DNA of 64,000 bases. Origin: a virus (lineage: Duplodnaviria; Caudoviricetes). Position 1 is the stretch's first letter. Each line of letters starts with the position of its first letter. Shown piece by piece: positions 2,945 to 64,000 of the stretch. Both the position numbers and the translations under genes were made by a program. The stretch covers positions 32,001 to 96,000 of the IMG/VR virus record IMGVR_UViG_3300033073_001045. One strand, written 5' to 3'. The notes beneath the pieces are model-generated. The model saw only the letters and a list, made by a program, of their open reading frames with translations. It was not told where the DNA came from and did not search any database.

Positions 2945-5722
2945 TTAAGCTCCAATAGCGTCAAGTCTATTTTTTATTTCTTTTATGGCTAAAACTAAAT
3001 ATGCAGATAATCTGTCATAAGAGACAGACTCAATCTCTCCAGCATCATTATAATTAACTATTGTATTTAATTCTTGGATTTCCTCTACATCCTCAGCAAT
3101 TAAACCTGAAGTCAAAACTGGTATTGAATCTCCCATAAACTCTTGTTTATACTTAAATGTAGCTGGTTTTAGCTGACTAATAATGTCTAAATATCCAGTC
3201 TCATTTAAATATGATATGTTATCTTTATATCTAATACTTGATGAGCTAACACGCATATAACCAGATGAATCCTGAACAATAGTGGTACCACTATTTACCC
3301 CTAAAGTATTTGCGTATATATTTCCTGATGGTAACAATTTGGTTTTCATGGTACCAACAGTGTCATTTGCTGCACCGCTATGTCCAACCATAACAGATCC
3401 ACTTATTCTTACGTCATTCCACCTATATGTTTGTGTACCTAAATCATAATTTGCGCCACCACCCCAATATGGGTAACAGTGTGATGTCCACCCACCAATA
3501 GTAGTATTTTTAAATCCAATAGAACCAACAACTAATCCTGTTACACCATTTAGTGTTCCTTGACTATCAATATAAGCAGCTGTATCTGTTGCTGTATTGA
3601 CAGCCAGCCTTCCACTAAAAGTTCCAGATGCTCCAGTAATATTTCCTTTAAATACTGCGTTGCCGCTAGAATTTATAGAAAATAAAGTAGCTCCAGTAGA
3701 ATCATACGCTGCAATTCCTGCACTATTTAATATAACCATATTAGCGCCAGGTGTAGCTGTAGTATCAGTATTGATCTTAAATCCGCTAGATGTAATTGTT
3801 ATTCCGTTAGAATTTATTGATGTTACTTGATTTTGTGCATTTGCTATTAAATATCCACCAGCTTCAAGTTTTGTATTTAATGCAGTTTTAGTGGCATATG
3901 TAGTATCTGTTCTTTGTGTCCAAGATGCTCCAGTCCAGGTTTTTATAATGTTTCCGTTGGCTGTATCTATCCAAATATCTCCAACTCTTGTTGCTGTTGG
4001 TGTTGTATCTTGAGCAAAAGTAGAATTTTTTGTAGCCAAAGATGTTGTAGTGGCATATCCGCTTAAAGATGCAACAGTAGCGTAATTAGATAATGAAGCA
4101 GTTGTCGCATAGCCATCAATTGTTGAGCTTGAAAAAACAGCTCCAGTAGCATATAGCTTTCCATTTTTATCTACCCTAAATGGAGCATTTGCTGCTGTCT
4201 GAGAGCCAACCCAAATTCTATATGTGGCATCGCTTGCACTTAATTTAACAATTGATGCCAGTGTTCCACTTGTATCACCTACTGTAAGATTACCGTTGCT
4301 TTCAAGTTTTGTATTGCTACTATAGATAGATCCTGTTGTTTGAGCAGTTCCATCTATTGTCCATCCACCTATATAGCCCTTACGTGCATCAATCTTTCCA
4401 TCTGCTGCTTGTATTGCTACTGTTTGTACACCAGCTGAATCATGTGCAAATAGTCCGCTTGGCTGCATAACAACTCTTCCAGCAGTTAAAGACCCAGCAT
4501 ATATACTTCCAGTAGTTACTTCTAAATTACCAGTAAACGTTCCACCTGTTGCATTTATTTTGCCAGTTGTATATAAATCTGATCCGTCCCAGTATAAAAA
4601 TGATGTAGCGCTTCCAACCCTAAACTGACCAGTATTTAGCCAATAATTATGACCACGATTTGTTGTAGATTTATTTAATATGATTCCACTATAAGTTCCA
4701 TCTACCTGAGATGGGGTAGTCGTCGTTGAAGTATTTATTGACTGTGATATGCCAGTGCCGATTTTAAATAAGTCAGCAGTTTTTCCACCAATAGATAAAA
4801 TTGATCTTAGCTGTGCCCAAGCATCAGAAGGTGCAGTTGAATCAACGTATGGGCCCATAGTTTTTGTTACGGCAGTAGACCAACTGATTGCATTAAATGG
4901 ACTTACCGCTGTAACTTGATAATAATATAATGTATTTGGAAGAGCGCCAGTTACAGTAAATCTAGTTGTAGCTTTTCCGTCAACTTTGCCATATTCCCAT
5001 AAAGGATTTGTAGTGGTGGCTGGATTTTGAGTTGTCCACCTAATTGCATAGCCATTAGTATTTGAATCTGTGTTTGCTGTCCATGTTATTACTATGCCAG
5101 CATTAAATCCAGTTAAGTCTGCAGCATCCTGAACCATAGTTCCAGAAGTTGAGCCTGGTGCGGATGGCGCAGTTGTTGTGTCAACTTCTGCATTGAGTGG
5201 TGTTACTGGACCAGCAGTAGTTTCAGATATATTTGTATCAAGCCACCTATCTCTTGTTACAACCTTAACCCATCTTGGTGCAAAGTCTGGTGTATTTATA
5301 GACATACTGTTTGCTGTACCAACATAAACAATGTACTGTTCTCCAGCAAATGCACCAGTTAAGCTTTCATAAACTATTACATCTTCATGTTCACTTCCAG
5401 CCTGAAAATCAAACTTGACTCCATATGATTTAAGTCCTGGTGTCAAAACTAAATTCAATACTGGTTTTGTTAAATTAGGGATATCGAACGTGGTCTCAAT
5501 CCACGGCGATAAATCTCCCTGTACTTCTGCACCAGTAGTTTCATCTTTATAAATATAAGCAGCCTGAAATCTATATTTTTTATATTTTACTAAAGGTAAA
5601 TCAATTATTTTTGTGTAGGATGATGCACTTACAGACGATGCGGCTTTAATCGCATCTTCTGTCTTTATTTGTAAATCTGGAGGAAGTGATACTCCTCCGC
5701 CACCACCTAATGAATCCAACAT
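2945..5722 (-). CDS. tail fibre/spike with FN3 domain and C-terminal intramolecular chaperone (peptidase S74-like)
   Basis: FN3 pattern (ITW...GY.IRW...LPNTLYYYQVTAV); SSIRYKDNI...LKP..F.YK...GLIAEDV...Y..L...L..AIKE chaperone signature. Confidence 0.8.
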   Translation of the reverse strand: MLDSLGGGGGVSLPPDLQIKTEDAIKAASSVSASSYTKIIDLPLVKYKKYRFQAAYIYKDETTGAEVQGDLSPWIETTFDIPNLTKPVLNLVLTPGLKSYGVKFDFQAGSEHEDVIVYESLTGAFAGEQYIVYVGTANSMSINTPDFAPRWVKVVTRDRWLDTNISETTAGPVTPLNAEVDTTTAPSAPGSTSGTMVQDAADLTGFNAGIVITWTANTDSNTNGYAIRWTTQNPATTTNPLWEYGKVDGKATTRFTVTGALPNTLYYYQVTAVSPFNAISWSTAVTKTMGPYVDSTAPSDAWAQLRSILSIGGKTADLFKIGTGISQSINTSTTTTPSQVDGTYSGIILNKSTTNRGHNYWLNTGQFRVGSATSFLYWDGSDLYTTGKINATGGTFTGNLEVTTGSIYAGSLTAGRVVMQPSGLFAHDSAGVQTVAIQAADGKIDARKGYIGGWTIDGTAQTTGSIYSSNTKLESNGNLTVGDTSGTLASIVKLSASDATYRIWVGSQTAANAPFRVDKNGKLYATGAVFSSSTIDGYATTASLSNYATVASLSGYATTTSLATKNSTFAQDTTPTATRVGDIWIDTANGNIIKTWTGASWTQRTDTTYATKTALNTKLEAGGYLIANAQNQVTSINSNGITITSSGFKINTDTTATPGANMVILNSAGIAAYDSTGATLFSINSSGNAVFKGNITGASGTFSGRLAVNTATDTAAYIDSQGTLNGVTGLVVGSIGFKNTTIGGWTSHCYPYWGGGANYDLGTQTYRWNDVRISGSVMVGHSGAANDTVGTMKTKLLPSGNIYANTLGVNSGTTIVQDSSGYMRVSSSSIRYKDNISYLNETGYLDIISQLKPATFKYKQEFMGDSIPVLTSGLIAEDVEEIQELNTIVNYNDAGEIESVSYDRLSAYLVLAIKEIKNRLDAIGA

Positions 5723-16900: not shown

Positions 16901-19070
16901 ATGTGACTCCAGGAATTTTTGGCATATCGTCGCTCATATATGCCTGTGGATTTTTACCAATTCTAATATTTACTGGCTTTGAACCTGGAACTGTTCCAAA
17001 AATTGTTCCCATCTGTGCAATTCCAGAAGGAATTAAATGCGACATGTCTCTTGAGTGTGGTTTACCTACAAGTGGATTATCTTTATCTACAACTCTTCCA
17101 CCAGCGCTACCTGCTGCAAGCACTGTTCCAGCAACCGTTGATATCGCAGGTTGAACTGCAACCTTTGCTGAATTTGCTTTTGTTTCTAAATCTGCTAAAG
17201 ATTGTGTAAGAGTATTTACAGCATTTGATAATACTATTGTTGCTTCTGAGTCAGAATAAAATGTTGTTGCAAGTCCTTTAGCGGCAGCATCTGCAGCAAT
17301 AATCTCTGGAGTTAATAACTTAAATCCTTGTCCGCCCTTAGCTATTTGGCGAAGATGAAATATTCCTTTGATTACATATCCAATAAAGTTGCCCATAACA
17401 CCAGTAAGCATGATGAGTGGACCTGCAATTGCTGTGAGTCCGCCAAGTGCATTTAAAAATGTTTTAACTGGACCAGGAAGATTTTCAAAAAACTTAATAA
17501 TTCCATCAACAACCTTTAATACTTTTGTGCTTACTTTTAAGAACTGTTCGCCAGCTTGAGCAAGATCAGCTTGAACTGTAGCCCAGGCTCTCTTAAATTG
17601 ACCAGATGCTGACTCTGTCATCATCTTTAATTCTCGTTCTGATATGCTAGCTAAATCAGATACACTAGCTTTCATTAAGTCCATAACCTGCAATGTTTGA
17701 GATCCAGATTTACCAAGGTTTTCAAAAAGTGCAGACATTCTTGCATATTGAAACTTTCCAAATAGCTGTTCAATTGCTCTTGACTTCTGCAATGGGTTTA
17801 GTTGATCCAACGCAGATTGTAAATCAAGAATTGTTTGTGTTAAATTTCCAGCATTTGACGAAACAATTTGTTCAAGGTTAATTCCAAATCCAGTAAACAT
17901 TTCTTTAGCAACTTTTGTTGGATTGATGAGTGAAGCCATTGCTGACTTAATAGCATTTGCACCTTCTGAGGCATTTACTCCACCTTCTTTCATTGCTGTA
18001 AGATAAAGGGCTAAGTCTTTTACATCCCCACCAAGAGACTTAACAACTGGACCAGCTTTTGGAATTGCTTCAACTAAATCTGCAAGGCTTGTTGATGTTT
18101 GGTTTTCAACTGCGTTAAGGAAGTCAATAGACTCTGTTAGCTGATCTGTATTTTGTTTAAATGCATTTTGAATAGCAAGTGTTGCCTTCATTGCATCTTG
18201 TCGCTCTACTTCTCCAAGCACTGCAAGTCTAGATGTTTGTCTTGTTGCTTCTAGCAGCGCATTGCCTTGCTGACCAGTTGCTGCGAGGTCAGCAGCAAGA
18301 GCGATAGTATCTTTATAAGCAACACCATATGAACTTGCTATCTCTTTTGCTGTAGCAGAAACATCTTTTCTTACTTTTGCAAGATCTTGTGAGGATACTG
18401 CAGCGAGACCTCCATAAACTTTTGTTAATCTTACAAGTTCTTGATCTGCTTCTCTAAATGCTTTTTGTGCTGCAGCTCCAAATGCAACAAGAGGAACTGT
18501 TAGACCAACTGTTAATTGTCGACCAGCCCACTGTGTATTTTTACCCCAGTTAATTAATTGATTTGATCCATCAAGCATTACCTTGTTCATAATCGCAGCT
18601 TCTTGTCTTGCGATTGCCATCTTGTTTTTTACTTCGTCAAGGCCCTTTGCAACCATAATATTGTATTGCATTATTCCCTGTGCATTTTTACCAACAGGTT
18701 GTACTATGGCTTGCTGTAGCATGACCTGCTGTTTAGCAAGATCTCTAATTAATGTGCTTGTTTTTTTAGTGTGGCCGTTCCAAGCGTTATAATATTCGTT
18801 TAGCTTAAGACGGCCACGATCTAAATTTTTACCAAACTTTTCTACATCTGATGATAGAGAAACAAAGTGTGAAGAAAATTGCCCAGTAGATCTCATTGTT
18901 TCCGCAAATGATTTATTCATTACGGCAATTTGATTTGCTAGCTTAGAGTTTGTTCCAGCTGTTGTTTCTTGCAGTTTTATGAGTTGGGCAGTAGTTGCAG
19001 CTAGCTGTGTTCGTAAACTGCTAAAATCTGCATTGGCGGTAATGTTGGTCGTGATCAAATTATCTGCCAT
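10923..19070 (-). CDS. tape measure protein with internal cargo domains
   Basis: 2715 aa, Ala-rich helical; TP901-type TMP core (LTVGLTVPL...NAVENQTSTSL.DL); GG...GE.GPE motifs; follows the tail chaperones. Confidence 0.92.
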   Translation of the reverse strand: MADNLITTNITANADFSSLRTQLAATTAQLIKLQETTAGTNSKLANQIAVMNKSFAETMRSTGQFSSHFVSLSSDVEKFGKNLDRGRLKLNEYYNAWNGHTKKTSTLIRDLAKQQVMLQQAIVQPVGKNAQGIMQYNIMVAKGLDEVKNKMAIARQEAAIMNKVMLDGSNQLINWGKNTQWAGRQLTVGLTVPLVAFGAAAQKAFREADQELVRLTKVYGGLAAVSSQDLAKVRKDVSATAKEIASSYGVAYKDTIALAADLAATGQQGNALLEATRQTSRLAVLGEVERQDAMKATLAIQNAFKQNTDQLTESIDFLNAVENQTSTSLADLVEAIPKAGPVVKSLGGDVKDLALYLTAMKEGGVNASEGANAIKSAMASLINPTKVAKEMFTGFGINLEQIVSSNAGNLTQTILDLQSALDQLNPLQKSRAIEQLFGKFQYARMSALFENLGKSGSQTLQVMDLMKASVSDLASISERELKMMTESASGQFKRAWATVQADLAQAGEQFLKVSTKVLKVVDGIIKFFENLPGPVKTFLNALGGLTAIAGPLIMLTGVMGNFIGYVIKGIFHLRQIAKGGQGFKLLTPEIIAADAAAKGLATTFYSDSEATIVLSNAVNTLTQSLADLETKANSAKVAVQPAISTVAGTVLAAGSAGGRVVDKDNPLVGKPHSRDMSHLIPSGIAQMGTIFGTVPGSKPVNIRIGKNPQAYMSDDMPKIPGVTSINGTSTGIVAQEAAKWHAMTAAIAMQSEAEIKALKTEVMATGTVTSSLTDAYQALLPQFSEITDLAAREVQAIVAEVQANKITVDQARAKIIQLNATVEAMLAETASMTAASMGRVANLTTVPLTSQPVVDPVTGKSNMKEMFHKGTTKEIADRIARALGGVRTSGAGYNIQTTKPKLAKGGIVPGTGNTDTYHTTAEAGSFVINKAGTQANMPIIQDLLGGRPVYRNSGGNVPVVLTPGEAVVPADIAQKNMPLMYALNGGPGKTGFGLESGGNPDWTTWKKILRLQERYQNAMQNGGWQKELQHRSIMHDATVLNNKGIAIDDAVRIATQNYEEAMLPKPKGAMTENGTIDKNAWRKIREKQFVKAVKIVKDANAGLEPLKRRQLNTNAAARIGASDARPTAEMLDHIRNNPDKFGGKDFVDRLFKDLGFESKNGNWVIDKYGKVSATNLHSTHTSPDAKWGYKAAGNFGQAFWGEADLNLAANDVRRALMIKGQRSFSYFPDEVLMTDKAIKLQDNAWLKRFGTTVPQAILDRSKGIISLPSLFKLMRRGAASRALGFAHLERAANSGGQIFAQKLFGGGGVGRLFLGMPRAIKQVEQQRAMKIAMEKASAAVAESRFAHKPVTQYDDLLEPTSGRSFPVPGIGGIYSKGGDKVFVKPVLDEKAALAELRATQIARDVHGLKSPKQKVVVINDPTDPMGKRRLLALESKYDEAFAKQDGKFTTDQYFKQLVASALRGDKDLAKGNLSGDILADVGPAGVFSAASGLRDYSATMPSMKDQAVINLLGVKGGAKKFFAEATVDVPKSMTADQYHDRMIKEIDKALPKLKQTISSFDLNAEEKVIYNAMIKRLSDARSVNWRELHGIHSSVKVSEAKPMTPAAIAKLLAADELKRRQSGHSVSLSDAAFKTAANGFAIGGLIGNVTKGRAMFRIGAGFGPTGEPKPGMYQSAPWGVNSLTIGMGEKLFGKSGLTKRAQNFLYDKFAAELAKEMPYGYTKNAAGSLIKALEPSVLDSVIRSAASSLLSAPEARRRLSDIDRDILKKKYVNWESKKETPLTDSLKQLIFKLEGREMGGPVSGNKPYIVGENGPEIFVPRNSGGIIPNGYNAGGMIKLMMMQMLGMFGGQTLGKMSGIPGGEMIGAMLGSMLGMGSMGGGGSKAPITSKGKWTAPIGATKAVEGVSVNGKDLRNLTSYGSKLESLSGSTSKFARLAGFGLKALTRLNLAVGIGATALIIANKRWKDHNEHLRIGMLQYGLTSEAAKKAGLKYTDYSSKLAETAANIQALREKNQLLYESMQNAGTPIKMTIEEYKKLRKEVKETYSDQIKLINQTKGEKNTKKLAEDLKVQLMAAGLSAEEATKKIWAMFKVSNKALTASSYTIQNAGFNRIETKQDAAARAVSRYKTAASEGGREGANQVNTGLTAIDTGIQDLIDRSKKAAKADKTGNTKILTEYEAQEKMLQRLNNLEASKVKLTQATREEMIKQNPALKKVINPADTLVSLWQKMNLAAKGFTGNLANLGSEAVAALSRVADVASATIAKQNETGILKEQYAYLGKLENQYKALQKAARGQSVAQQISTRDQLRALQKQIDANNKLADARLKALDAAKQESDLARELEKKKAAYEAAVATGNTAEAQQLSLDMKGIQSTMQYNSQRAAIENARDAANKPLQAKMDAINSANEKLADNAALASENLGKLGEKIATQKQKIEDFNKAMTTLVLNAIAAGKTVDQYIKDSKAGKGDASSLLTTGKAAGVIKGDLKGVDVASEALKLMGKPIDAVTSALSSKGITMGSGDIIINGKKVDLGPNVDKNGQALKSISFAISPSTKNPTVGTGNLNAAGIQTGQIRKGLEFLDKNGKKWRVTGEGQYNTWNIEKAGYGTMKLDPNIPTIVGDRGPEMAFGGMIIPNLAKIPFSSPRYDVNKAALQMGSAQQHSGTTIQYTQHIHAAPGMNEDQLVMKAKVAAYEFLQDSIKTNAKMVGTSKNVRINT

Positions 19071-23875: not shown

Positions 23876-24925
23876 TTAAGAAGCAACCTTAACGTTCTTT
23901 ACGACTACCCAAGCATCTGCTTGCTCGATTTGAACACCAACACGAGTATACATTGTGTACTCGATTGAGTCCTTGCGAGGCCAGAAGAAGCGGTAAACAG
24001 TTACGTCACGCTTGATACCAATAACTACGTTATTTGGGAATGTCAAGTGAACATCACCGTGTGAGCCTGTTGCGCCATCGTAATCACCTGTTTGTGTCTC
24101 AGGAAGAAGTGGAACTTCAACGATTGGAATACCGAATGCATATGGAGCAACGTATCCTGCTGGTCCACCAAGAACTGGAACGTCGCCACGAATGATACCT
24201 GAAGCGATATCCTGTGGTGTTACGTTCTGAATGTTCTGTGAGTTTGAGTACAAGTAGTCTTGGATAAGATTTGATCCAGACAAGAAGCGAAGGTCTGTAC
24301 GACGCTGCTTGTACTTACGAGGCAAAGCCTTGAGAGCAGAGTTGAATACTGCACGATTTAGGCCCTGACCTTCTGCGTCAACAACGTGACCATAAGTCTT
24401 TGCCTTCTTTACAGCGCCATCAAATGACTTGTAAAGTGCGTCTCCTGTAAGAGAAGAGTCACCATTAAGAATAACATCTTCGATGTCATTTCCTGCTTGT
24501 GTTGCCATCATACGTGCAATATGATCTTCAAGATCTGCACCTTCGATGTTATCTTCTAGAGATTCAGTTGAAAGCTCCCAGTCCATGCGAAGCTTCTTTG
24601 TTGTGAGAGAGATCTTAGAGAATGTTACTCCGCTGTTAGTTGCGGTATTCTCGCCTTCTGATGCAAGCTTTACAAGCTTCTCACCAATAGACATACGATC
24701 AATTTCAGTTGTATCAGCTTTCATACGGACCGTACGTGCAACCTTACCAATTACGGTAGCGTCGAACATATAATCTAGAAATCTAGCTGATTGTTCTGGG
24801 TTAAGGAGACCACCATTTCCATTTTCGGAAGCTGTGTGTACTCCTGCACCACCAGTTGAAGAGCCAAAGCCAGTTGATACTGTTGTACCTGCTGCTGCGG
24901 CCTTTTCTAATAGTTCATTACTCAT
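23876..24925 (-). CDS. major capsid protein (HK97 fold)
   Basis: 349 aa; GGLLNPEQ..RF, ESLEDNIEG and LNGD motifs; strong codon bias; follows the protease. Confidence 0.9.
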   Translation of the reverse strand: MSNELLEKAAAAGTTVSTGFGSSTGGAGVHTASENGNGGLLNPEQSARFLDYMFDATVIGKVARTVRMKADTTEIDRMSIGEKLVKLASEGENTATNSGVTFSKISLTTKKLRMDWELSTESLEDNIEGADLEDHIARMMATQAGNDIEDVILNGDSSLTGDALYKSFDGAVKKAKTYGHVVDAEGQGLNRAVFNSALKALPRKYKQRRTDLRFLSGSNLIQDYLYSNSQNIQNVTPQDIASGIIRGDVPVLGGPAGYVAPYAFGIPIVEVPLLPETQTGDYDGATGSHGDVHLTFPNNVVIGIKRDVTVYRFFWPRKDSIEYTMYTRVGVQIEQADAWVVVKNVKVAS

Positions 24926-24942: not shown

Positions 24943-26352
24943 TTAGTTTGAAAAGATTTCATTTACGGAACCGAGGAAAGAACCGTTCCATTTTGATTTT
25001 GATTGTCTTGCTATTCCTTCTGATCGGCCAAGATCTGAGGACTTCTTAATTGCTGTATCGCCTTCTACGGCATCTACACGCTTTTGAACACTATCAATAG
25101 TGCCCTTTATTTCTGACACAGCTGCACTAAGTGCGCTATGCTTTTCTGCCAACTCTGTAATTTGGCCATTGATGCTCTTGCTGAATGACTCTACAGTTTC
25201 TTTTATTTCTGAAACCTGTGCAGCATTAGCTTCTGTAGCCTTTACTAGAGTCTCCGAGAAAAATCCCTTAAGGTCGCCCAACATTTTTGCAAAATCAGGT
25301 TCATCAACCGTGACTTCTTTTGTTTCGGCTGCTTTTTCAACGGAGTCGGCAGGAGTTGTTTCGACTGATGCTGGTGCATCTTCTGAAACTACATCAGACT
25401 TTTCAATAGCTACTTCTGCTTCAGATACAACATCTTCTGCTTCTGTAACGACTGAATCTTCAGCAACTTCAACAGCTGCTTCAACGACTGATTCTGGTAC
25501 AGCTGTTTCAACTGGAGCTTCGACTATTGCCTCTGCTTCTTTGTTAACATTAAGCTTTTCCATCTCATTACCTCCTTCTGCGTTTGCCTGTTTTGCAATT
25601 GTTTGTGTTTCAGGCAACGTCAATCTTGACTTCTTAAATGAATCAAGAATTTTATCTATTTCTTTTGATTTAGATGCGTCTGAACTTTCTACCCATCCAA
25701 TTAATGTAGCTGGTTTACCAGATACTGGTGACTCAAATGTTTTTTCTGTCGACATAAAAACAGAATCACTTTCTTCGCAATAAAAAATATTTTCTGTAAC
25801 AACTTCTGTAGCCATTCCCTTGTATACAACTTGTCCGTTCATCTTTTCAATAGAAAAAATATTACATAGCTGGTTTGCTGGTGAGTCTACAATTGATAGC
25901 TCTATGAGTTCATAATTTTTAATAAATCTTACTTGCTCGCCTGTAGATTTATTAATTTCGTTGTCTGCTTCTAAAATCTTTCCGCCTATTGAAAATCCTG
26001 ATAGCGTTCCATCGAGAACTTTTTCCCATGTATCTTGTGCGCCTTTTGAAATATATGATGTAACATAAACTCCATTATAAAACTCTTTTGTTTTTTGATC
26101 ATAATAAGTTTCTGGTCTAAAAGAAACTACCTTGCCAACTGCAAGTGGCTGATGCATCTCACGAAGATTTCCTCTAAACGATTCAAACGCCTTCATGCTT
26201 GCTTCTGCTGTAACAACATCGCCAGTTTGATCTACGTTGTCTAGTGTCGCAAAACCAGATACAGTTCTCTGTTCACGATTTACTTTCGTGAATGGTACTG
26301 ATAGGTGTACGTTGTCGCCATTACTGGACCACAGGGCCTTTTCAATGTTCAT
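24943..26352 (-). CDS. prohead protease fused to acidic scaffold
   Basis: VSGFAT..NVD..GD, REMH, GFSIGG and ELSIVDSPAN motifs; Glu/Ala-rich coiled C-terminus. Confidence 0.9.
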   Translation of the reverse strand: MNIEKALWSSNGDNVHLSVPFTKVNREQRTVSGFATLDNVDQTGDVVTAEASMKAFESFRGNLREMHQPLAVGKVVSFRPETYYDQKTKEFYNGVYVTSYISKGAQDTWEKVLDGTLSGFSIGGKILEADNEINKSTGEQVRFIKNYELIELSIVDSPANQLCNIFSIEKMNGQVVYKGMATEVVTENIFYCEESDSVFMSTEKTFESPVSGKPATLIGWVESSDASKSKEIDKILDSFKKSRLTLPETQTIAKQANAEGGNEMEKLNVNKEAEAIVEAPVETAVPESVVEAAVEVAEDSVVTEAEDVVSEAEVAIEKSDVVSEDAPASVETTPADSVEKAAETKEVTVDEPDFAKMLGDLKGFFSETLVKATEANAAQVSEIKETVESFSKSINGQITELAEKHSALSAAVSEIKGTIDSVQKRVDAVEGDTAIKKSSDLGRSEGIARQSKSKWNGSFLGSVNEIFSN

Positions 26353-26405
26353 ATGGTTAATTTTATATTGTTATTTACTATAACGCAAATAGCAGTTGAT
26401 TAAAC

Positions 26406-27992
26406 TTATTTGACTTTTGGACCATCGCCTTTTGCATTTCGGCCTTCCCCATTTTTATCTGGGGCATTTTTAGCACGTTCCTGGTCTCTTGATCTATTCC
26501 CAGTAGACTTGGCATTTTGATCTGCTGCCTGCTGAGGCTTTAATTCTACTACTTCGTCTCCCCCATCAATAGGAACCATATTTTTTCTAATTCGAACTTC
26601 GTTTGGAGTTATGACCTGCATTCTCAAGTAAATTTCATCAATTTGGCTTTGAGTAATTTCATCAGTAAGGCTGAGTTCATTGAATTTTAATTCAACAACA
26701 TCTGTCTTTTCTGCAATTAAATAATTAAGCTTTTTCTCAAGTCTATCCTGAGCTGGACGACAAACTTGCTCTTTAAATGTTTTATCAGCATCACGAGCAA
26801 CTGCTAGATTTACACCCTCTGGCGTTCCAATTTTATTAATTGGGACACGGTGGGCCAAAAGGATTTCATCTCTATTTGTTTTACGATAAATATTAAATGA
26901 TGACTCCTGCTCTCCTGCCTCAATTGGCTCCATCTTAAATTCAGTCTTTGAGTCTGGTGTGTCTGCTGGAAGAGGAATATATAGAGATCTGTGATTCTTT
27001 CCTTTAAGTCCAACCTGGAAAAATTCTAGAAGCTTTCTTTCTGATTCTGGTGAAAGTTTTGCTCCCTTAACTGTAATAATATATCTTGGTACCGCTTTAT
27101 TTTCAAAGTAGTCAAGGTTATATCTTCCAGCAAATTCATTACCAGCTAGCGCTTGCTGAGCAGCAATAATATCTGGAACACCATAGTAGTTATTCATTGG
27201 TGTATATTTCTTCAAATGAATAATCTCATTTGGTCGATCTTCTTGTCCAGCAATTGGGCTTGGCGTTTCCATATCGCCAAAGTTTCTAAAGAAAACAGCC
27301 TTGCCGTAAAGAAGTTGTATGAAACCATCACGCAATCTTCTTACACGCATTGTCTTGGCTGGTATATGACCAATGTAGCCGATATCTCCAGCAACTGTAC
27401 GACCAATCTCAATGTAACCATTACCAGTCGCCTCAAGGTCTGTATAGGCCTTTATGAGGGTCTCTGTAAAAGACTCTTCTTCGTTGCAATCATCTAGCCA
27501 TAAATCAAGCTGTGTTTTAATTCTATTAATCTTTGCACGTGCTCTATCTAATTGTTTTTGATCAGTAATAGCATCCATTGCATCTTTTGTTTTTGGAGTT
27601 TCTGTAAATGTATATCCAAGACCAACAATATTTGAAACTTTTGCATTAATTGCAGCATAATTATATGTTGATATTTCATAAATCTTTGAAAGATATTCAA
27701 GGTTATAAGTTGGCTCGACAAGATCAAATAACGCATATCCGCTGATAGCTTGCTGCATTAGATTTTGCTGTGTGCCTACTCCAGAGGTACCAACAAAAGA
27801 TTTTGAAAAATCTCTATTTACCTTGCGTCTAAATGTTGATCCAAGCCCACTTAATTTTTTAATTTCTTCTAGGCCAATATTAAATGGATCTTCATGCTCT
27901 GCTTCTTTTTTAAAAGAAAACCAATCTGCAGAATTAGATATATCTATTGTATTTGAGTCTTCTGACTCATCTTCTATAAATTCAGCTCTCAT
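26406..27992 (-). CDS. portal protein
   Basis: GNGYIEI.R, EIIH.K, YYGVP, YFEN.A.P and ITPNEVR motifs. Confidence 0.92.
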   Translation of the reverse strand: MRAEFIEDESEDSNTIDISNSADWFSFKKEAEHEDPFNIGLEEIKKLSGLGSTFRRKVNRDFSKSFVGTSGVGTQQNLMQQAISGYALFDLVEPTYNLEYLSKIYEISTYNYAAINAKVSNIVGLGYTFTETPKTKDAMDAITDQKQLDRARAKINRIKTQLDLWLDDCNEEESFTETLIKAYTDLEATGNGYIEIGRTVAGDIGYIGHIPAKTMRVRRLRDGFIQLLYGKAVFFRNFGDMETPSPIAGQEDRPNEIIHLKKYTPMNNYYGVPDIIAAQQALAGNEFAGRYNLDYFENKAVPRYIITVKGAKLSPESERKLLEFFQVGLKGKNHRSLYIPLPADTPDSKTEFKMEPIEAGEQESSFNIYRKTNRDEILLAHRVPINKIGTPEGVNLAVARDADKTFKEQVCRPAQDRLEKKLNYLIAEKTDVVELKFNELSLTDEITQSQIDEIYLRMQVITPNEVRIRKNMVPIDGGDEVVELKPQQAADQNAKSTGNRSRDQERAKNAPDKNGEGRNAKGDGPKVK

Positions 27993-28327
27993 TGAACTTT
28001 TCCATTTCTTAAAATTGAATCTTTATAGACGCCAATATCTAACGGATCTGGTGTAAGACCCCACTTAAGCCTTTCATTTTGATGTTCAAACTCTTCATCA
28101 TCAATTTTGCGTCTTCCTGCTAAAAACTTAGGTTGTCCTACATCTATTCCATACGAACGGACTTCTCTTGCAAGTGCGTCAATTCTAGAACGATTGCCTT
28201 TCTTTGAAGTTATCGATAAGAAATTTCCATCGTCATCACCAATCCATCTTCCATCTGGCATTTCCCAGACATATATTCCAAGGGTTGTTTCCTCGATGAT
28301 CTGACTTTTCTGATTCAATATGTTCAT
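27989..28327 (-). CDS. hypothetical protein upstream of portal
   Basis: 112 aa, coupled to the portal; own extended -10 promoter. Confidence 0.75.
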   Translation of the reverse strand: MNILNQKSQIIEETTLGIYVWEMPDGRWIGDDDGNFLSITSKKGNRSRIDALAREVRSYGIDVGQPKFLAGRRKIDDEEFEHQNERLKWGLTPDPLDIGVYKDSILRNGKVQ

Positions 28328-28392
28328 ATAGTACTAATTCTACCATTCTTTAATATCAAAGTCCAGATTTTGTCTTAGACATTTACAATATT

Positions 28393-30204
28393 TTATATAT
28401 TTGTCCCAATAGGGTCCCTAGTTATAAGAAAAAACGGCAAATTGTCTGTTCCTGTGTTTTTTTCTACTAAAGTAATCCCTGTATCTTCTACTGATATCAT
28501 GCCCAGCCCTATATATTTGGAATAATGATTATTCACCATATCTGATGTAAGCTGATGGTCGTATATTGCCAGGTTATTGTACATTGTTCCAGTACCCCAT
28601 GACAAGCCGTCTTGACTTTCATTAATACGCATATCTGTACTTGCAGACTCATTCAAAATAATAACTACGTGGTGCTGGATCCCTTCGGCAAAAAACTCAT
28701 TTATATTTGTAGCGTCGGACACGTTTACATTATTAACATAAATGGCGTCTATTCCAGTTTTAAGTATTAGCCCAGACGAGTCCCAAGACAATGACTCATT
28801 ATTAGTCGAAAGTAGCACACATGGTCCAGAACCTGGTGTAAAAAACATTTCTACAGACATTATATTCATTTCAGAATTTATGCTAAATCCATGACCATCA
28901 TACATCCTTAATCCATTATTACTGTTGTAGGATAGCACACGAGAATTACTTTTTGGTAGACAATATTCATAATCGGAGTATATTTTATCGTTAGAGTTAT
29001 CTCCATAAAATGACTTATCAATAAAAAATAAAAATTCAATTGATCTTAGCACTGGCAAATATTTTGATGTGTCTTCTGAATTCATTCTTACTTTAATATA
29101 CATTACATCTTCAAACTGTTGATCATTTTTATTAAAAAATGGTATGGATTTTCCATTTGTACATGTAGTCCAATTTATATTATCTAAACTTACCTGAACA
29201 GATATTCCATCTGTATCACCATCCCAGTATACTTGTGAGGATGAAAGCCCAAGATAGTTTGGAATAACAACGTAGTCTGTAAAAATAAATTCTTTTGTTT
29301 GTTGATCTGTTGTTTTTTCAAAGTACAAGTACTGTTGATCTGTTGATAATTTAACGCTATCATTAGAAACATCAGACCATTTTTTTGAAATAGGATATGA
29401 ATAAGAAAATGTATGTCTCATTCTATCTATATTCATACTAAATAAATGTCCTCCATCTGGATACACTATTTGTGATGCGTCAACCGATTTTGTGCCAGCA
29501 ATGTAGTGTTTTGCTATTTGTGCTTGCGTCAGTTCTAATTTATAAAAAGCTATGCCATCTATCATAAATCTAATATCAGATTGACCAGACTTGAACGATA
29601 TACTGTTATTAGTAAATTTATAACTATTTAAAGAAAGTGAATTTTGAAGATTAGAGTTTATATATAATGAAATTTTATTTGTTGTAAATACACCAACTAC
29701 ATGAATTGCTTCTCTGAGAGAAAATGTGCTATGAATTTCATGCGATCCTACTGAAAATATAATATTACCATTTTCATAAAATATTCCTATATTATTTGAT
29801 GGGTCACCAAGAAGTGTTATTCTTGATTCAGAATGTTCTGTTATTAAAAACCATCCTTCAATACTAAATGTATTGTCTGAATAATCCTTTGAACATATGC
29901 TATTTACTGGATAATATATTAAAGTATCTGGTAAAACTTCTGTACCACGTTCCCCGCCATGATGTATAGGCATTATCTTTTTTAACGATGCATCAGTAGA
30001 AAATCCATCGTTAAAATTACCAGAAAAATCATATACTGGAAGCCCACTAATTGCAGAATATGACACTCCGTTGTCTTTAAGATCTTGGTATGTTGCATAT
30101 TTTACTGTTAGTCCACTGTATGTTCCAACATCTCCAGAAGAAACTTCATCTAATTCATAAAAAGCAATAGGTTTATCTTTAAGGACAGTATATTTGTATG
30201 ACAT
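28393..30204 (-). CDS. LamG/concanavalin-like virion protein
   Basis: FSIEGWF...HVVGVF...LYIN...IDGIAFY...LT..QI..HY; second similar domain at the C-terminus. Confidence 0.75.
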   Translation of the reverse strand: MSYKYTVLKDKPIAFYELDEVSSGDVGTYSGLTVKYATYQDLKDNGVSYSAISGLPVYDFSGNFNDGFSTDASLKKIMPIHHGGERGTEVLPDTLIYYPVNSICSKDYSDNTFSIEGWFLITEHSESRITLLGDPSNNIGIFYENGNIIFSVGSHEIHSTFSLREAIHVVGVFTTNKISLYINSNLQNSLSLNSYKFTNNSISFKSGQSDIRFMIDGIAFYKLELTQAQIAKHYIAGTKSVDASQIVYPDGGHLFSMNIDRMRHTFSYSYPISKKWSDVSNDSVKLSTDQQYLYFEKTTDQQTKEFIFTDYVVIPNYLGLSSSQVYWDGDTDGISVQVSLDNINWTTCTNGKSIPFFNKNDQQFEDVMYIKVRMNSEDTSKYLPVLRSIEFLFFIDKSFYGDNSNDKIYSDYEYCLPKSNSRVLSYNSNNGLRMYDGHGFSINSEMNIMSVEMFFTPGSGPCVLLSTNNESLSWDSSGLILKTGIDAIYVNNVNVSDATNINEFFAEGIQHHVVIILNESASTDMRINESQDGLSWGTGTMYNNLAIYDHQLTSDMVNNHYSKYIGLGMISVEDTGITLVEKNTGTDNLPFFLITRDPIGTNI

Positions 30205-59854: not shown

Positions 59855-59875
59855 AGTTAAATAATTATACCATTG

Positions 59876-59950
59876 TAGGGATATTGGGATTTGAACCCAA
59901 AGTCGATTGTATATAAGACAATTGCTTTAACCAGATTAAGCTATATCCCC
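59876..59950 (-). tRNA. tRNA-Ile, anticodon UAU
   Basis: GGGGATA acceptor stem, D arm GCTT..AAGC, anticodon arm ATTGT-CTTATAT-ACAAT, T arm TTGGG-TTCAAAT-CCCAA; CCA not encoded. Confidence 0.9.
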
Positions 59951-60147: not shown

Positions 60148-60282
60148 ACAGTAAGTATACTATATATTCTAGTCAACTACAATATCAGATTTTACAAAAA
60201 TGTTAATATTTTTTTTTCTTGTATGATACATACATTTAGCAATGTCCGATTTGTCCGATAGTCCGCACATATTAGGGCTATT

Positions 60283-60298
60283 TGTGATGTATCTCACA
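60283..60298. promoter_or_regulatory. CRP/GlxR-type box (others at 60534, 61037, 61191, 62533, 62550, 63606)
   Basis: TGTGA-N6-TCACA; four perfect copies and three with one mismatch. Confidence 0.75.
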
Positions 60299-60346
60299 AA
60301 GTATTTTTTCAATATGTCCCTAATGTCCGTTTTGCGAGTTGATATT

Positions 60347-60368
60347 TGTCAGACCCCTCTGATAGTCT
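60347..60368 (+). promoter_or_regulatory. PafBC/RecA-NDp-type promoter P1
   Basis: TGTCAG-N10-TAGTCT. Confidence 0.7.
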
Positions 60369-60401
60369 TAAGACATAAGGTTAAAGAAAGGAGATAAGCA
60401 A

Positions 60402-60560
60402 ATGCTTACTCAAACTACACTAGACAAGATAGTCTATGAATATCAACACGGTGGTGTTAAGTCTAACCACCCTGAATTAACTACCCGTGAGCGTAAGGCT
60501 CTTCTGAAGTATCTCTTCAGCCTACCTGCTCATTGTGATACATGTCACACACACGCATAA
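60402..60560 (+). CDS. small early protein, 52 aa
   Basis: AAAGGAG RBS; MLTQTTLDKIVYEYQHGG... Confidence 0.7.
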   Translation: MLTQTTLDKIVYEYQHGGVKSNHPELTTRERKALLKYLFSLPAHCDTCHTHA

Positions 60561-60577
60561 GCGTGTCGTGTTGATAA

Positions 60578-60599
60578 TGTCCCCTCTATACGCTACAAT
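60578..60599 (+). promoter_or_regulatory. degenerate PafBC-type promoter P2
   Basis: TGTCCC-N10-TACAAT. Confidence 0.5.
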
Positions 60600-60635
60600 T
60601 TCAGACATAAAGAACTAACGAAAGAAGAACAATAA

Positions 60636-60788
60636 ATGACAATCACTTACTCAATATGGGATGGCTCTCAACTACTAGGTGTAGATTTCAAGGCTTCCTC
60701 CCCTGATGAAATGAACACTTTTGTAAAAGAACTACAAAAGGTTTCTAAAAATGTTGTAGCACATATGCGAAAGGTAGAACAGAACTAA
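60636..60788 (+). CDS. small early protein, 50 aa
   Basis: MTITYSIWDGSQLLG... Confidence 0.65.
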   Translation: MTITYSIWDGSQLLGVDFKASSPDEMNTFVKELQKVSKNVVAHMRKVEQN

Positions 60789-60928
60789 TGATGACTAAAT
60801 GGGATACAATTCAATCAGACCTAGACCCAGTAACACCTAAGTATTGGGGAGATGAACACGAATTTGATAAGTCAATAGATGATGATGACGATATTGAATT
60901 CTCACTAGATAATTGGGAGGAGATGTAA
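60788..60928 (+). CDS. small acidic protein, 46 aa
   Basis: MMTKWDTIQSD...DDDDDIEF; TAATG coupling. Confidence 0.6.
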   Translation: MMTKWDTIQSDLDPVTPKYWGDEHEFDKSIDDDDDIEFSLDNWEEM

Positions 60929-61056
60929 TGACTACTAATCGCCTACTAACTACCGCCGTTCAATTAGGCATAGGTATCCCTGCGCTATATATGGCGAGGA
61001 TCGTATTCCGTGATTTCGTAGCGGAGATGCGTGAAATGTGGCACGAATCACAATAA
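60928..61056 (+). CDS. small protein, 42 aa
   Basis: MTTNRLLTTAVQLGIGIPAL...; GGAGG RBS, TAATG coupling. Confidence 0.6.
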   Translation: MTTNRLLTTAVQLGIGIPALYMARIVFRDFVAEMREMWHESQ

Positions 61057-61255
61057 AATAACGGCGTGTCGGCTTGACAAAATCAAGCTGGCCCGCAAAG
61101 GCACGGGGTCGGGCGTGTCGTTATGAAAGAGTTATAAAAACCCTGAAAATTTACGGCGTGTCGATTTGACAGACAATTCGGACATTTTTATGTGATGAGT
61201 ATCACACGACTTGAGCGTCTCAAAGTTTGGAATTACTGGCTAGTAATGTGAAAAA

Positions 61256-61277
61256 TGTCAGTGGCTTAGGCTATAAT
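61256..61277 (+). promoter_or_regulatory. PafBC/RecA-NDp-type promoter P3
   Basis: TGTCAGTG-N8-TATAAT. Confidence 0.8.
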
Positions 61278-61311
61278 TGCAGACATAACAACGAAAGAAA
61301 GAAGGTCTTAA

Positions 61312-61428
61312 ATGAACCTAGAAGAATTCAAGGCTCACGTTATCGCACAACGTGAAGCAAGCAAGGCGGAAGCGTTGTCAGTGCTATCTGCTACAATTAC
61401 CAAAACAACAAAGAAAGGCGACAACTAA
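61312..61428 (+). CDS. small protein, 38 aa
   Basis: MNLEEFKAHVIAQREASKAEALSVLSATI... Confidence 0.6.
   Translation: MNLEEFKAHVIAQREASKAEALSVLSATITKTTKKGDN
61376..61397 (+). promoter_or_regulatory. PafBC/RecA-NDp-type promoter P4 (intragenic)
   Basis: tTGTCAGTG-N8-TACAAT. Confidence 0.75.
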
Positions 61429-61628
61429 TGTCAGCAAATGTCTATAATGTAGAAAGTCTCCTAGTGGGAAAAATGTATTACTCTAATTCAGTAAAAGGCG
61501 AGATTATCTCAGCCGAAAAAAATAGTGATGTATGGTATGCGGATTGCGATACCTACAAGGTGCAGGTTCGCCCTACCAATTCTATCAAAGATACTTACCG
61601 CTATGTAGCAGTAAAGGTTGGTGAGTAA
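61428..61628 (+). CDS. hypothetical protein
   Basis: 66 aa; GAAAGG RBS. Confidence 0.7.
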   Translation: MSANVYNVESLLVGKMYYSNSVKGEIISAEKNSDVWYADCDTYKVQVRPTNSIKDTYRYVAVKVGE

Positions 61629-61772
61629 ATGGGATTTATTGAATTCGCTAGAATAAATGAAGATGGAGTTTCTTGGGTAGATTTATCCGAAGCGACACCT
61701 GATGAATTATTCAACATTGAATTAGGCTTACTAAATGAGGGAGCCCTATTCAATACACCTGAAGCCAAATAA
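61629..61772 (+). CDS. small acidic protein, 47 aa
   Basis: MGFIEFARINEDGVSWVDL... Confidence 0.6.
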   Translation: MGFIEFARINEDGVSWVDLSEATPDELFNIELGLLNEGALFNTPEAK

Positions 61773-61787
61773 GAAAGGAAAACTAAA

Positions 61788-61922
61788 ATGGTAAAAGATG
61801 TAAAAGAAATAATTGCCGTTTCTTGTGATGAGTGTGGCGGTGCAGGTTTCCTATTTTGGGGAGATGAAAATAACTATGATGTAGAAGCGTGTGATTGCGC
61901 TCTTGATGATTGGAACATTTAA
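61788..61922 (+). CDS. small Zn-finger protein, 44 aa
   Basis: CDECGGAG...CDC; GAAAGG RBS. Confidence 0.65.
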   Translation: MVKDVKEIIAVSCDECGGAGFLFWGDENNYDVEACDCALDDWNI

Positions 61923-62131
61923 TGTATAAAATAACTTTATCTTATGACGGCAACGCTCCGCATTGGCAAAAAGACTATGACAACGAATTTGAGGCTTGGA
62001 AAGATTTCTTTGCTTTCGTTGATTGGGGTTTCGCTAACGAATACTCAACTGTAAATCTTTATAATTCAGAATTGAAATGCTTTACCCGTCATTTCTATCG
62101 TGAGGGAAGAAAGGTCGTAACTGTAAAATGA
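61922..62131 (+). CDS. hypothetical protein
   Basis: Start ATG 61922 (TAATG coupling); F.DWGFANEYSTVNL. Confidence 0.7.
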   Translation: MYKITLSYDGNAPHWQKDYDNEFEAWKDFFAFVDWGFANEYSTVNLYNSELKCFTRHFYREGRKVVTVK

Positions 62132-62316
62132 TGACACGCAAAGATTATATTTCTACTGCAGAAATTCTAAAGTATGTGAGCAACAAAACTCACCCAGCCG
62201 TATTTTCTAAAATGGTAAATGATTTTGCAGAGATGTTTGCAAAAGATAATCCTCGTTTTGATGTAACAAAGTTTCACGAAGCAAGCGGATATAAAGTAAA
62301 AACTTTTACAAATTAA
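62128..62316 (+). CDS. hypothetical phage protein
   Basis: MTRKDY...F..DNPRFD..KF..A. Confidence 0.7.
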   Translation: MMTRKDYISTAEILKYVSNKTHPAVFSKMVNDFAEMFAKDNPRFDVTKFHEASGYKVKTFTN

Positions 62317-62334
62317 AAAGAAAAGGAACAGAAA

Positions 62335-62490
62335 ATGACAAAAGAAAAAGTAAAACGTGTTCAAGAATTGCGCCGATCAAATGCAGCAACACCAATTCCA
62401 TCTAAGAAAAAATATAAACGTAAAGTAAAACACAAAAAAGAAAAATATTTAAAAACTTATTGCGAATTGGTAGCTCCATTTTTTGAATAG
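62335..62490 (+). CDS. small very basic protein, 51 aa
   Basis: ELRRSNAATPIPSKKKYKRKVKH; AAAGG RBS. Confidence 0.6.
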   Translation: MTKEKVKRVQELRRSNAATPIPSKKKYKRKVKHKKEKYLKTYCELVAPFFE

Positions 62491-62591
62491 TTGAATTTTC
62501 AACTATTCGCCCGCAAAAGCGTGGGGGCTATATGTGATTTAAGACACAATGTGATTTTCCCCACAAAATTTACGGCGTGTCGTTTTGTAAA

Positions 62592-62613
62592 TGTCAGTCT
62601 ATTCTGTTATAAT
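62592..62613 (+). promoter_or_regulatory. PafBC/RecA-NDp-type promoter P5
   Basis: TGTCAG-N10-TATAAT. Confidence 0.75.
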
Positions 62614-62642
62614 TCTATCACCAACCAACGAAAGGCCAATTC

Positions 62643-63362
62643 ATGAAACTAAAAAGGTCTAATGATAGAAAGGTGGCTAACCTTGTCACTAAAAATGGAA
62701 AGCAGGCAGCAATTGCTAACACGTTCGGATTGCCCGCAGGAAAAAACTATTCATGTCCTGGCGCAACGTCTATCTGTGAGACTGTTTGCTACGCTGGCAA
62801 ATTGGAAAAGTTATTCCCAGGAGTAAAAACTAATCTTCTGCATAACTGGGATCTTCTTAAAGACGCAGATAGCAAAACGATGATTTCTCTTCTTGATGAA
62901 ATGATTAAAGAATTCAAGGCTGATTGTCTTAAGAAAGACGCCCCTATGTTATTCCGTATTCACTGGGACGGAGATTTTTTTAGCGACGCTTATGCATATG
63001 CATGGAAAAACGTTATCTCTAGTCATGAAGATGTTCAATTCTGGGTATATACACGTGTAAAGTCTGCAGCGCTTATTCTTAAGGATGTATCTAATCTTTC
63101 ACTGTACTATTCAACGGATGATGAGAATAAAGAAATTGCATTCGATTTAAAAACTAATTCTAAGGTCCGCCTTGCTTACCTAGGCAAGACATTCGCCTCA
63201 ACCGAAGACACAATGAAAGAATTAACTGGAAAGCCTGGCGCTAAGTGCCCTGAAAATAATAAAAGCATTCCATTAATTTCTGGCAATGGGTCCGCCTGTG
63301 TTTCATGTGGCTTGTGTGTCTACGGTAAAGCAGACATTCGATTTTCTGCGAGTAAAAAATGA
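62643..63362 (+). CDS. Gp88-like Cys-rich protein (radical-SAM-like Fe-S)
   Basis: FGLPAG...SCPGATSICETVCYA, RIHWDGDF, FWVYTR, and terminal CP...C.SC.LC. Confidence 0.75.
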   Translation: MKLKRSNDRKVANLVTKNGKQAAIANTFGLPAGKNYSCPGATSICETVCYAGKLEKLFPGVKTNLLHNWDLLKDADSKTMISLLDEMIKEFKADCLKKDAPMLFRIHWDGDFFSDAYAYAWKNVISSHEDVQFWVYTRVKSAALILKDVSNLSLYYSTDDENKEIAFDLKTNSKVRLAYLGKTFASTEDTMKELTGKPGAKCPENNKSIPLISGNGSACVSCGLCVYGKADIRFSASKK

Positions 63363-63514
63363 GCTCAACCGATTTTTTAGGAGCTGTGATTGGAATCATT
63401 CTTATTTTATTTTTATGCTCTCCGATTGTACTAGCTATATATATGTGGACCAATGCAAAAATAGATATCGATAAAGACGGCAAGGATGATCTTCCTAATC
63501 GTTGGGATGGGTAA
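63359..63514 (+). CDS. small membrane protein with DxDxDG loop, 51 aa
   Basis: Hydrophobic helix then DIDKDGKDD; ATGA coupling. Confidence 0.6.
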   Translation: MSSTDFLGAVIGIILILFLCSPIVLAIYMWTNAKIDIDKDGKDDLPNRWDG

Positions 63515-63562
63515 CGGCGTGTCGTGTTGACAATTGTCAGCACGGCCCGTATATGTAGGGGG

Positions 63563-63594
63563 TTTTCCACAGGCTTACGGATAATTGTGGATAA
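63563..63594. promoter_or_regulatory. DnaA-box pair
   Basis: TTTTCCACA (63563-71, 1 mismatch) and TGTGGATAA (63586-94, perfect reverse TTATCCACA). Confidence 0.55.
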
Positions 63595-63654
63595 CCCTGG
63601 ATTTTTGTGATGATTATCACAAAAGCTGCGACACGCCGATAATGGATTAGGAAA

Positions 63655-63676
63655 TGTCGGTGGCTTAGGCTATAAT
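63655..63676 (+). promoter_or_regulatory. PafBC/RecA-NDp-type promoter P6
   Basis: TGTCGG-N10-TATAAT, exact consensus; spacer identical to P3. Confidence 0.8.
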
Positions 63677-63705: not shown

Positions 63706-64000
63706 ATGCTAAAAGAAAAAATCACAGTAGGCGAAGCCATAACACTTATTCATGATTCACTTATGACCTTTGAAGATGGTCTGCCAAGTGCAGATATTTC
63801 TGCAATTATTTATGCAATTAACAATGATATTCAGATTCGTGATTACTTGCTAGGACTTCCTGATACTTTCCCTATGGATACTTGCAAGGCATTCTTATCT
63901 TATATCTCTGATTCAGTAGATGGTGCAGAACGCTACTCAGTAGATACTATTGCTTCTGCATATTTCTTTGAAACTGGCGATATTGAAATGGCAGTAATGC
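63706..64000 (+). CDS. hypothetical protein (partial; possibly DUF4192-like)
   Basis: GAAAGG RBS; open to the window end; DIQIRDYLLG. Confidence 0.6.
   Translation, partial: MLKEKITVGEAITLIHDSLMTFEDGLPSADISAIIYAINNDIQIRDYLLGLPDTFPMDTCKAFLSYISDSVDGAERYSVDTIASAYFFETGDIEMAVM

Follow-up and report, generated by a model that had tools for sequence, protein, structure and literature searches.

The analysed window is a 64,000-nt stretch (bases 32001-96000) of the 104,003-bp virus record IMGVR_UViG_3300033073_001045 (Caudoviricetes; here G000), a record that is 94% complete. Towards its 3' end, from 60347 to 63676, lie small genes preceded by sites that resemble the promoters of PafBC, the WYL-domain activator of the RecA-independent DNA damage response of mycobacteria. 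A reading of the sequence alone (the original prediction) had placed five exact TGTCRG-N10-TAnnnT promoters and one degenerate copy here. A pattern scan recovered all five, at 60347, 61256, 61376, 62592 and 63655, all on the plus strand. Positions are those of the window unless preceded by G000, which denotes the record. The predicted promoters and adjoining genes (ORF, open reading frame) are as follows.

60347..60368, plus strand: -26-box promoter, TGTCAG-N10-TAGTCT with a TGn extended -10, the first of the arm, 5' of ORF 60402-60560
60571..60599, plus strand: canonical promoter, TTGATA-N17-TACAAT, with TGTCCC within the spacer, 5' of ORF 60636-60788
61256..61277, plus strand: -26-box promoter, TGTCAGTGGC-N6-TATAAT, its box identical to the published recA-type consensus, 5' of ORF 61312-61428
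61376..61397, plus strand: -26-box promoter within a 38-aa ORF, identical in several relatives, 5' of ORF 61428-61628
61429..61450, plus strand: sixth exact match of the pattern scan, overlapping the ATG of ORF 61428
62592..62613, plus strand: -26-box promoter, 5' of the GP88-family gene
62643..63362, plus strand: gene for a GP88-family protein, typical of actinophages (PF17338, 185 bits)
63655..63676, plus strand: -26-box promoter, TGTCGGTGGC-N6-TATAAT, 5' of a DUF4192-like gene that starts at 63706 and runs beyond the window end

The window contains six exact matches to the pattern against 1.2 +/- 1.0 expected, and six or more were reached in 0 of 100 shuffles. The match at 61429, which overlaps the start codon of ORF 61428, is probably a coding coincidence and not a promoter. 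The supposed degenerate copy at 60578 (TGTCCC) is better described as part of the ordinary promoter at 60571-60599. The whole record carries 16 forward and no reverse matches, and a reversed-pattern control gave none. Fifteen of the 16 are inside G000 92347-102084, a single ~10-kb arm of small genes that extends beyond the window end, and 14 of these 15 are in promoter position, each shortly 5' of a gene. The claim that the sites precede a ribosome-binding site and an ORF also holds: in 12 of the 14 promoter-position sites a Shine-Dalgarno sequence, frequently CAACGAAAGG, and an ATG were detected by script 13-21 nt after the -10. The sequence AGACATAA, reported to follow three of the promoters, indeed lies directly 3' of the -10 at three places only (60371, 60603 and 61281), which are the first three promoters. 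The arm is a block of ~30 small genes in 10 kb, driven from ~14 predicted promoters of recA-promoter build. The rest of the phage genome has canonical TTGACA-N16-18-TAnnnT promoters. The two promoter classes are spatially separate and are therefore likely to be regulated separately.

The motif is shared by related phages, with 11-19 same-strand copies in one ~12-kb arm in all seven complete close relatives (controls, 0-3). More distant lineages also carry it, with 26 copies in 9 kb in G013 and 5-11 in G014-G017; these have GC contents of 38-50% and portals of just 47-56% identity. A position-weight matrix was built from 109 distinct sites in eight related arms. The sites are A-rich at -31 to -29 and have A at -24 (99/109), W at -22, S at -21 and -20 (104/109) and C at -19. 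An extended -10 is common (87 of the sites have G at -14, and 70 have T at -15), and the -10 itself reads TAtAAT, with A at both -9 and -8. A -35 signal is missing across the 109 sites (information <=0.12 bits at -38 to -32), in keeping with the earlier statement that the promoters mostly lack this element; the exception is 60571-60599, classed as canonical.

The spacing is equally constrained. Across the eight arms, TAnnnT begins exactly 10 nt 3' of TGTCRG in 117 of 155 forward copies, other spacings are rare, and the reverse strand holds just 13 TGTCRG overall. In a non-circular test we anchored on TGnTAnnnT alone and then read the hexamer at -28 to -23. TGTCAG occupies this position at 70 of the 219 forward sites in the eight arms and every other hexamer occurs at most four times; all six one-mismatch variants keep the GTC. 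At such anchored sites TGTCAG occurs neither on the reverse strand nor in the remaining 92 kb. A second subtype of the phage site reads TGTCAGACCCC. Judged by sequence, the sites are a real promoter class in which a -26 box (TGTCAG, at -28 to -23) replaces the -35 and is usually combined with TGn and a sigma-A type -10.

This build is that of PafBC-dependent promoters. The facts on which the original prediction drew, namely the consensus, activation by single-stranded DNA (ssDNA) and the repositioning of sigma at a -26 element, agree with PMC8635444. The in vivo consensus is tGTCgg(N10)tA(N3)T with its 5' part at -28 to -23 and no -35; the GTC triplet, which R46 and R50 of PafB read, shows strict conservation across actinobacteria, and PafBC places itself between the DNA and sigma region 4 in what is called 'sigma adaptation' (PMC8635444). 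PafBC levels are constant and ssDNA is required for its action. A longer recA-type consensus, TTGTCAGTGGC-N6-TAGggT from the Streptomyces rimosus recA promoter, is quoted in PMC2375139, and the window sites 61256 and 63655, TGTC(A/G)GTGGC-N6-TATAAT, match this box. The proposed match in sequence, spacing and missing -35 was thus confirmed: phage sites and PafBC-dependent promoters (PMC8635444, PMC6789036, PMC11804915) share TGTC(A/G)G at -28 to -23, the retained GTC, the 10-nt gap to TAnnnT and the lack of a -35, and the extended form TGTCAGTGGC-N6-TAnnnT is identical in phage and recA-type promoters. They differ in that the phage has an array of ~14 in 10 kb, which drives small orphan genes plus GP88, DUF932 and DUF4192 genes and not repair genes, and in that its sites have A and not G at -24, a strong W-S-S-C at -22 to -19 and the TGn extended -10.

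The original prediction drew its comparison from mycobacteria and named M. smegmatis as the test species. The GC content is ~36% throughout and the phage is therefore not a mycobacteriophage; it is an uncultured freshwater actinophage. This siphovirus has a tape measure protein of 2715 aa and a portal 55-58% identical to those of Streptomyces phages of the Stanwilliamsviridae (127-131 kb), and it shares ~40 genes, the structural and replication core, with cultured members of this family. It encodes a WhiB protein (46.7 bits), and relatives of the GP88, DUF4192 and DUF932 genes of the arm are overwhelmingly found in actinophages. A primase, a helicase and a Cas4-like nuclease are also encoded, together with RecA (G000 23891-24889, minus strand), a DnaE-type Pol III alpha (25500-28784, minus strand) and a DenV-like pyrimidine-dimer glycosylase (17099-17572, minus strand). 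A megablast search of the region against cultured phages gave no match. Metagenomes from eight studies, of aquatic, lake, estuary and wastewater origin, contain near-identical DNA, and the portal has at least 598 relatives in IMG/VR.

Lake virome papers regard phages with whiB as actinophages that infect Nanopelagicales, acIV or Luna-type hosts. The best 120 matches to the WhiB of the phage are all phage copies, and its RecA shows 36-37% identity to the RecA proteins of both small and large actinobacteria; neither protein gives a host signal. The metagenome runs with near-identical DNA contain no single-cell host link. Portal matches in species genomes led just to bins labelled Bacteroidia, Cytophagaceae, a cyanobacterium and Dongiaceae, which are probably mis-binned phage contigs, and a Bacteroidota host is disfavoured because of the strong Shine-Dalgarno leaders and WhiB. 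The phylum of G021 was also discarded, as it comprises tiny genomes without WhiB. Two metagenome-assembled genomes do carry full-length WhiB genes (94-96 bits; G021:C4 and G032:C9) in a phylum that otherwise consists of 0.5-2-Mb genomes lacking WhiB. One of these genes is next to an 851-aa ORF without annotation, and its contig has 49% GC; both genes are probably on mis-binned actinobacterial contigs.

Sites of the same build precede recA in actinobacteria. The sequence TGTCAGTGGCnCCTGnTACCTT is common to ~14 single-contig streamlined actinobacterial genomes of 1.3-1.5 Mb. All five of these genomes that were fetched have it 150-190 nt upstream of recA, with a LexA-type TCGAAC-N4-GTTCG box after it. 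At these loci the LexA-type box comes directly downstream of the PafBC-type box and a TGn extended -10, so that a single promoter appears to receive input from both damage pathways. A motif match 155-210 nt upstream of recA is also present in Microbacterium betulae (G063), a genome reached through cellular WhiB homologues, and in a 9.2-Mb genome. M. betulae has 26 motif matches against 5 for the control. Sampling of the class to which Microbacterium belongs found TGTCAGTGGC-N6-TAnnnT in 105 of 401 genomes with controls near zero; one of these matches is from G325, which is flagged unpublished and on which no claim depends. The phage site at G000 96187 (TGTCGGTGCCACCTGCTATACT) is identical to the recA promoter of G342 (TGTCAGTGGCACCTGTTACCTT) at 17 of 22 positions, and a site of the relatives (TGTCAGTGCCACCTGTTATACT) at 19 of 22. 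The general pattern is not enriched over the control in the streamlined genomes, where just individual conserved sites are informative. The second phage subtype (TGTCAGACCCCCC) is found in another streamlined lineage beside a gene for a DnaQ-like exonuclease.

The streamlined genomes also encode a putative PafB-PafC pair. All five candidate-host genomes examined have two adjacent WYL genes. In one of them the first gene aligns end to end with M. smegmatis PafB (E 4e-39) and keeps the R-M-F-E-R segment that holds the two DNA-reading arginines, and the second matches PafC (E 9e-22). The pair was aligned to the RNA polymerase-PafBC structures 7P5X, 9FND and 6SJ9. In two streamlined genomes a conserved PafBC-type site adjoins the pafB-pafC pair (G461:C1:657108 and G223:C1:720973), which may reflect autoregulation or control of a neighbouring gene. 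We regard streamlined actinobacteria as possible hosts.

Similar sites occur in other phages. Small Microbacterium siphophages of other genera (Quhwahvirus and Appavirus) have one to three forward sites each, no reverse sites and no control matches. They include the Quhwahvirus phages Gina, NoodlelyBoi, Hermeonysus and Cranjis; phage Warren has sites as well. One site is kept in all four Quhwahvirus genomes, and others are close upstream of the genes for an exonuclease, ERF and SSB. Actinophages that share DUF932, namely Abba and TaeYoung of Arthrobacter and Quesadilla, Bane1 and StAugustine of Mycobacterium, are at background in the motif scan.

The phage arm contains further repeated elements, which we list here.

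60283..60298, also 60534, 61191, 63606 and G000 97746: TGTGA-N6-TCACA palindrome (CRP/GlxR-type consensus)
61063..61071, 61112, 61155, 62574 and 63516, plus strand, and 63629-63637, minus strand: GGCGTGTCG box, six copies, arm only

The palindromes start 44-65 nt upstream of a TGTCAG box (the one at 60534, of the TGTCCC copy), and all five are in the arm, with none in the other 92 kb of the genome. Three of the GGCGTGTCG boxes lie 2 nt before a TTGACA, where the -10 candidates are weak at two (TATGTG and TATATG) and none is found at the third, and GC-rich hairpin-like stretches occur near the boxes. ATGTCC(G/C) repeats related to AGACATAA cluster at 60242-60329. A tRNA-Ile gene with anticodon TAT (59875-59950, minus strand) is located in the divergent region, a short distance upstream of the arm. 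Further upstream the window encodes a full-length cytochrome P450 (55772-57160, plus strand; PF00067, 242 bits). Its operon, on the plus strand, also contains an SLT lysozyme-like gene and is driven by canonical TTGACA promoters.

We consider it fairly likely that the reader of the arm sites is the host's own PafBC, which would bind the phage boxes as it does those of host genes. The phage block would thereby plug into the host DNA damage sensor: ssDNA-bound PafBC would let the housekeeping RNA polymerase use the phage promoters by sigma adaptation, and the ~30 small genes would be transcribed once PafBC of the infected cell is activated. The ssDNA that acts as the trigger could arise when the incoming DNA is processed, during phage replication or recombination, or through earlier damage to the host. 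From the size of the arm genes and the likeness to terminal-repeat arms of relatives, we infer that these genes are expressed early. In the Streptomyces relatives a DUF932 homologue is located ~1-2.5 kb from the genome end and is present twice per record, in line with a terminal repeat. In RNA-labelled runs, short contigs of relatives cover about half of the arm bins; these contigs lack transcript starts and may stem from DNA carry-over, and they indicate presence only.

An alternative is that a phage-encoded protein reads TGTCAG and recruits or remodels the host RNA polymerase in the manner of T4 MotA/AsiA, the likeness to PafBC being convergent or incidental. We think this unlikely. Such a protein would enter the cell along with the DNA or be the first to be produced, from ordinary promoters, and the canonical promoters elsewhere in the genome could serve this purpose. 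A search of the phage genome for a WYL protein of its own, suggested at the outset, found none, and there is no match to MotA (MotA_activ). The sole match to sigma region 4 is below the threshold; it is a 48-aa helix-turn-helix protein that is also present in the motif-less Streptomyces phages and was rejected as the box reader. Among 14 scanned proteins of the arm and the neighbouring operon none has a transcription factor or DNA-binding domain. Five proteins (o4360, o4728, o20717, o24924 and o17099) do follow the motif, as they occur in the motif-bearing lineages and not in the Streptomyces relatives, and one of them (o4360) has a four-cysteine zinc ribbon. As a set they comprise a BPH/HslV-type protease, a MazG enzyme, a pyrimidine-dimer glycosylase, the zinc ribbon protein, which is predicted to be membrane-anchored, and a 113-aa protein of unknown function, and none looks like a promoter reader. 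The protease is o4728 (G000 4728-5285, minus strand, outside the window), which was set aside as a reader on this ground. It is a 185-aa homologue of the proteasome beta subunit with invariant T2, D18 and K36, is present in all motif-bearing lineages, has its best PDB matches in 5OVS and 5OVU, and belongs to a family of more than 5000 clusters at 50% identity. The many small ORFs without annotation and the lack of the motif in relatives whose hosts have PafBC also favour a phage factor, whereas the near-identity of box and flanks with host recA promoters and the similar sites in Microbacterium phages of other genera argue for a host protein.

The sites could also be self-sufficient extended -10 promoters in which TGTCAG is a repressor operator, of host or phage, or some other signal and not an activator site. 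Many actinobacterial promoters have an extended -10 and no -35, and both the frequent G at -14 and T at -15 and the extra control layers to which the arm-specific TGTGA-N6-TCACA, GGCGTGTCG and AGACATAA elements point are compatible with this idea. A repressor would not demand the invariant spacing to the -10, which is what a factor docking onto RNA polymerase needs. The box is also asymmetric, unlike typical repressor operators, about one fifth of the sites keep it without the G at -14, and the same architecture is found at host recA, where PafBC is the known activator. We therefore regard the operator explanation as distinctly improbable. A further idea, that the repeats play no part in transcription and are left over from duplicated cassettes or recombination hot spots, is highly improbable. 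In its favour, some sites are nearly identical over 22 nt (61256 and 63655 differ at one base), and phage early regions typically have mosaic arms. Against this, the flanks are nearly information-free while box and -10 are fixed across the 109 distinct sites, strand and position ahead of ribosome-binding sites are strictly biased, and the motif persists in lineages whose arm genes lack detectable homology.

Several observations weigh against control by host PafBC. Cultured Stanwilliamsviridae (Muntaha, Yaboi, BillNye and Riptide) are at background in the motif scan although their Streptomyces hosts bear PafBC and use promoters of this type (RecA-NDp); PafBC use is therefore not a family trait. 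The published M. smegmatis consensus lacks the W-S-S-C preference that the phage sites show at -22 to -19, and the TGn extended -10 at most sites could act independently of PafBC, without an upstream element. The arm encodes dozens of small proteins without assigned function, any of which could bind DNA. That the host is one of the PafBC-bearing lineages is itself inferred, and the recA stretches fetched from streamlined genomes have 49-52% GC against 36% in the phage.

The arrangement recalls several known systems. As in the middle promoters of T4, with their MotA box at -30 and sigma-70 -10, a normal -10 is combined with a factor-specific box that replaces the -35 closer to the -10 and would time a class of genes. 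T4 supplies its own activator and co-activator (MotA/AsiA), whereas the phage described here has no MotA-like, above-threshold sigma-like or WYL match and its presumed reader is an ssDNA-gated host protein. The terminal repeats of the Bacillus phage SPO1 and the pre-early region of T5 are host-takeover modules that use ordinary housekeeping-sigma promoters. They share with the phage arm its presumed terminal position and many small genes, nearly each with its own strong promoter, and differ from it in that the phage arm has -26-box promoters. Prophage induction through LexA/RecA and the WYL defence regulators CapW, BrxR and DriD likewise couple genes to a DNA damage or ssDNA signal. They act by relief of repression or through upstream palindromic sites, whereas here an apparently lytic phage would use the promoter architecture of a host activator.

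Coupling of phages to the SOS response via LexA/RecA and re-programming of sigma by phage proteins are known. The suggestion that PafBC-type phage promoters are new stands: no description of them was found in the searched open literature, nor of a lytic-looking phage that borrows wholesale the promoter architecture of a WYL activator of its host. We see about even chances that a large, globally common lake phage group has handed control of its host-takeover genes to host PafBC, and that Microbacterium phages do so on a smaller scale for recombination genes. If so, the alarm raised by the cell at foreign or damaged DNA would itself turn on the phage programme, in a host-activator version of the T4 appropriation of sigma. 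This would explain the timing of a gene class without a sigma factor or activator of the phage's own. The PafBC pathway would be an infection sensor that phages exploit, and one would expect PafBC to act as a host factor in phage growth; pafBC has reportedly been linked to mycobacteriophage resistance in a 2025 paper that PMC12848934 cites. The cultured Microbacterium phages with one to three sites offer a testable system. Given the abundance of the lake phage group, the mechanism would bear on the turnover of dominant freshwater actinobacteria.

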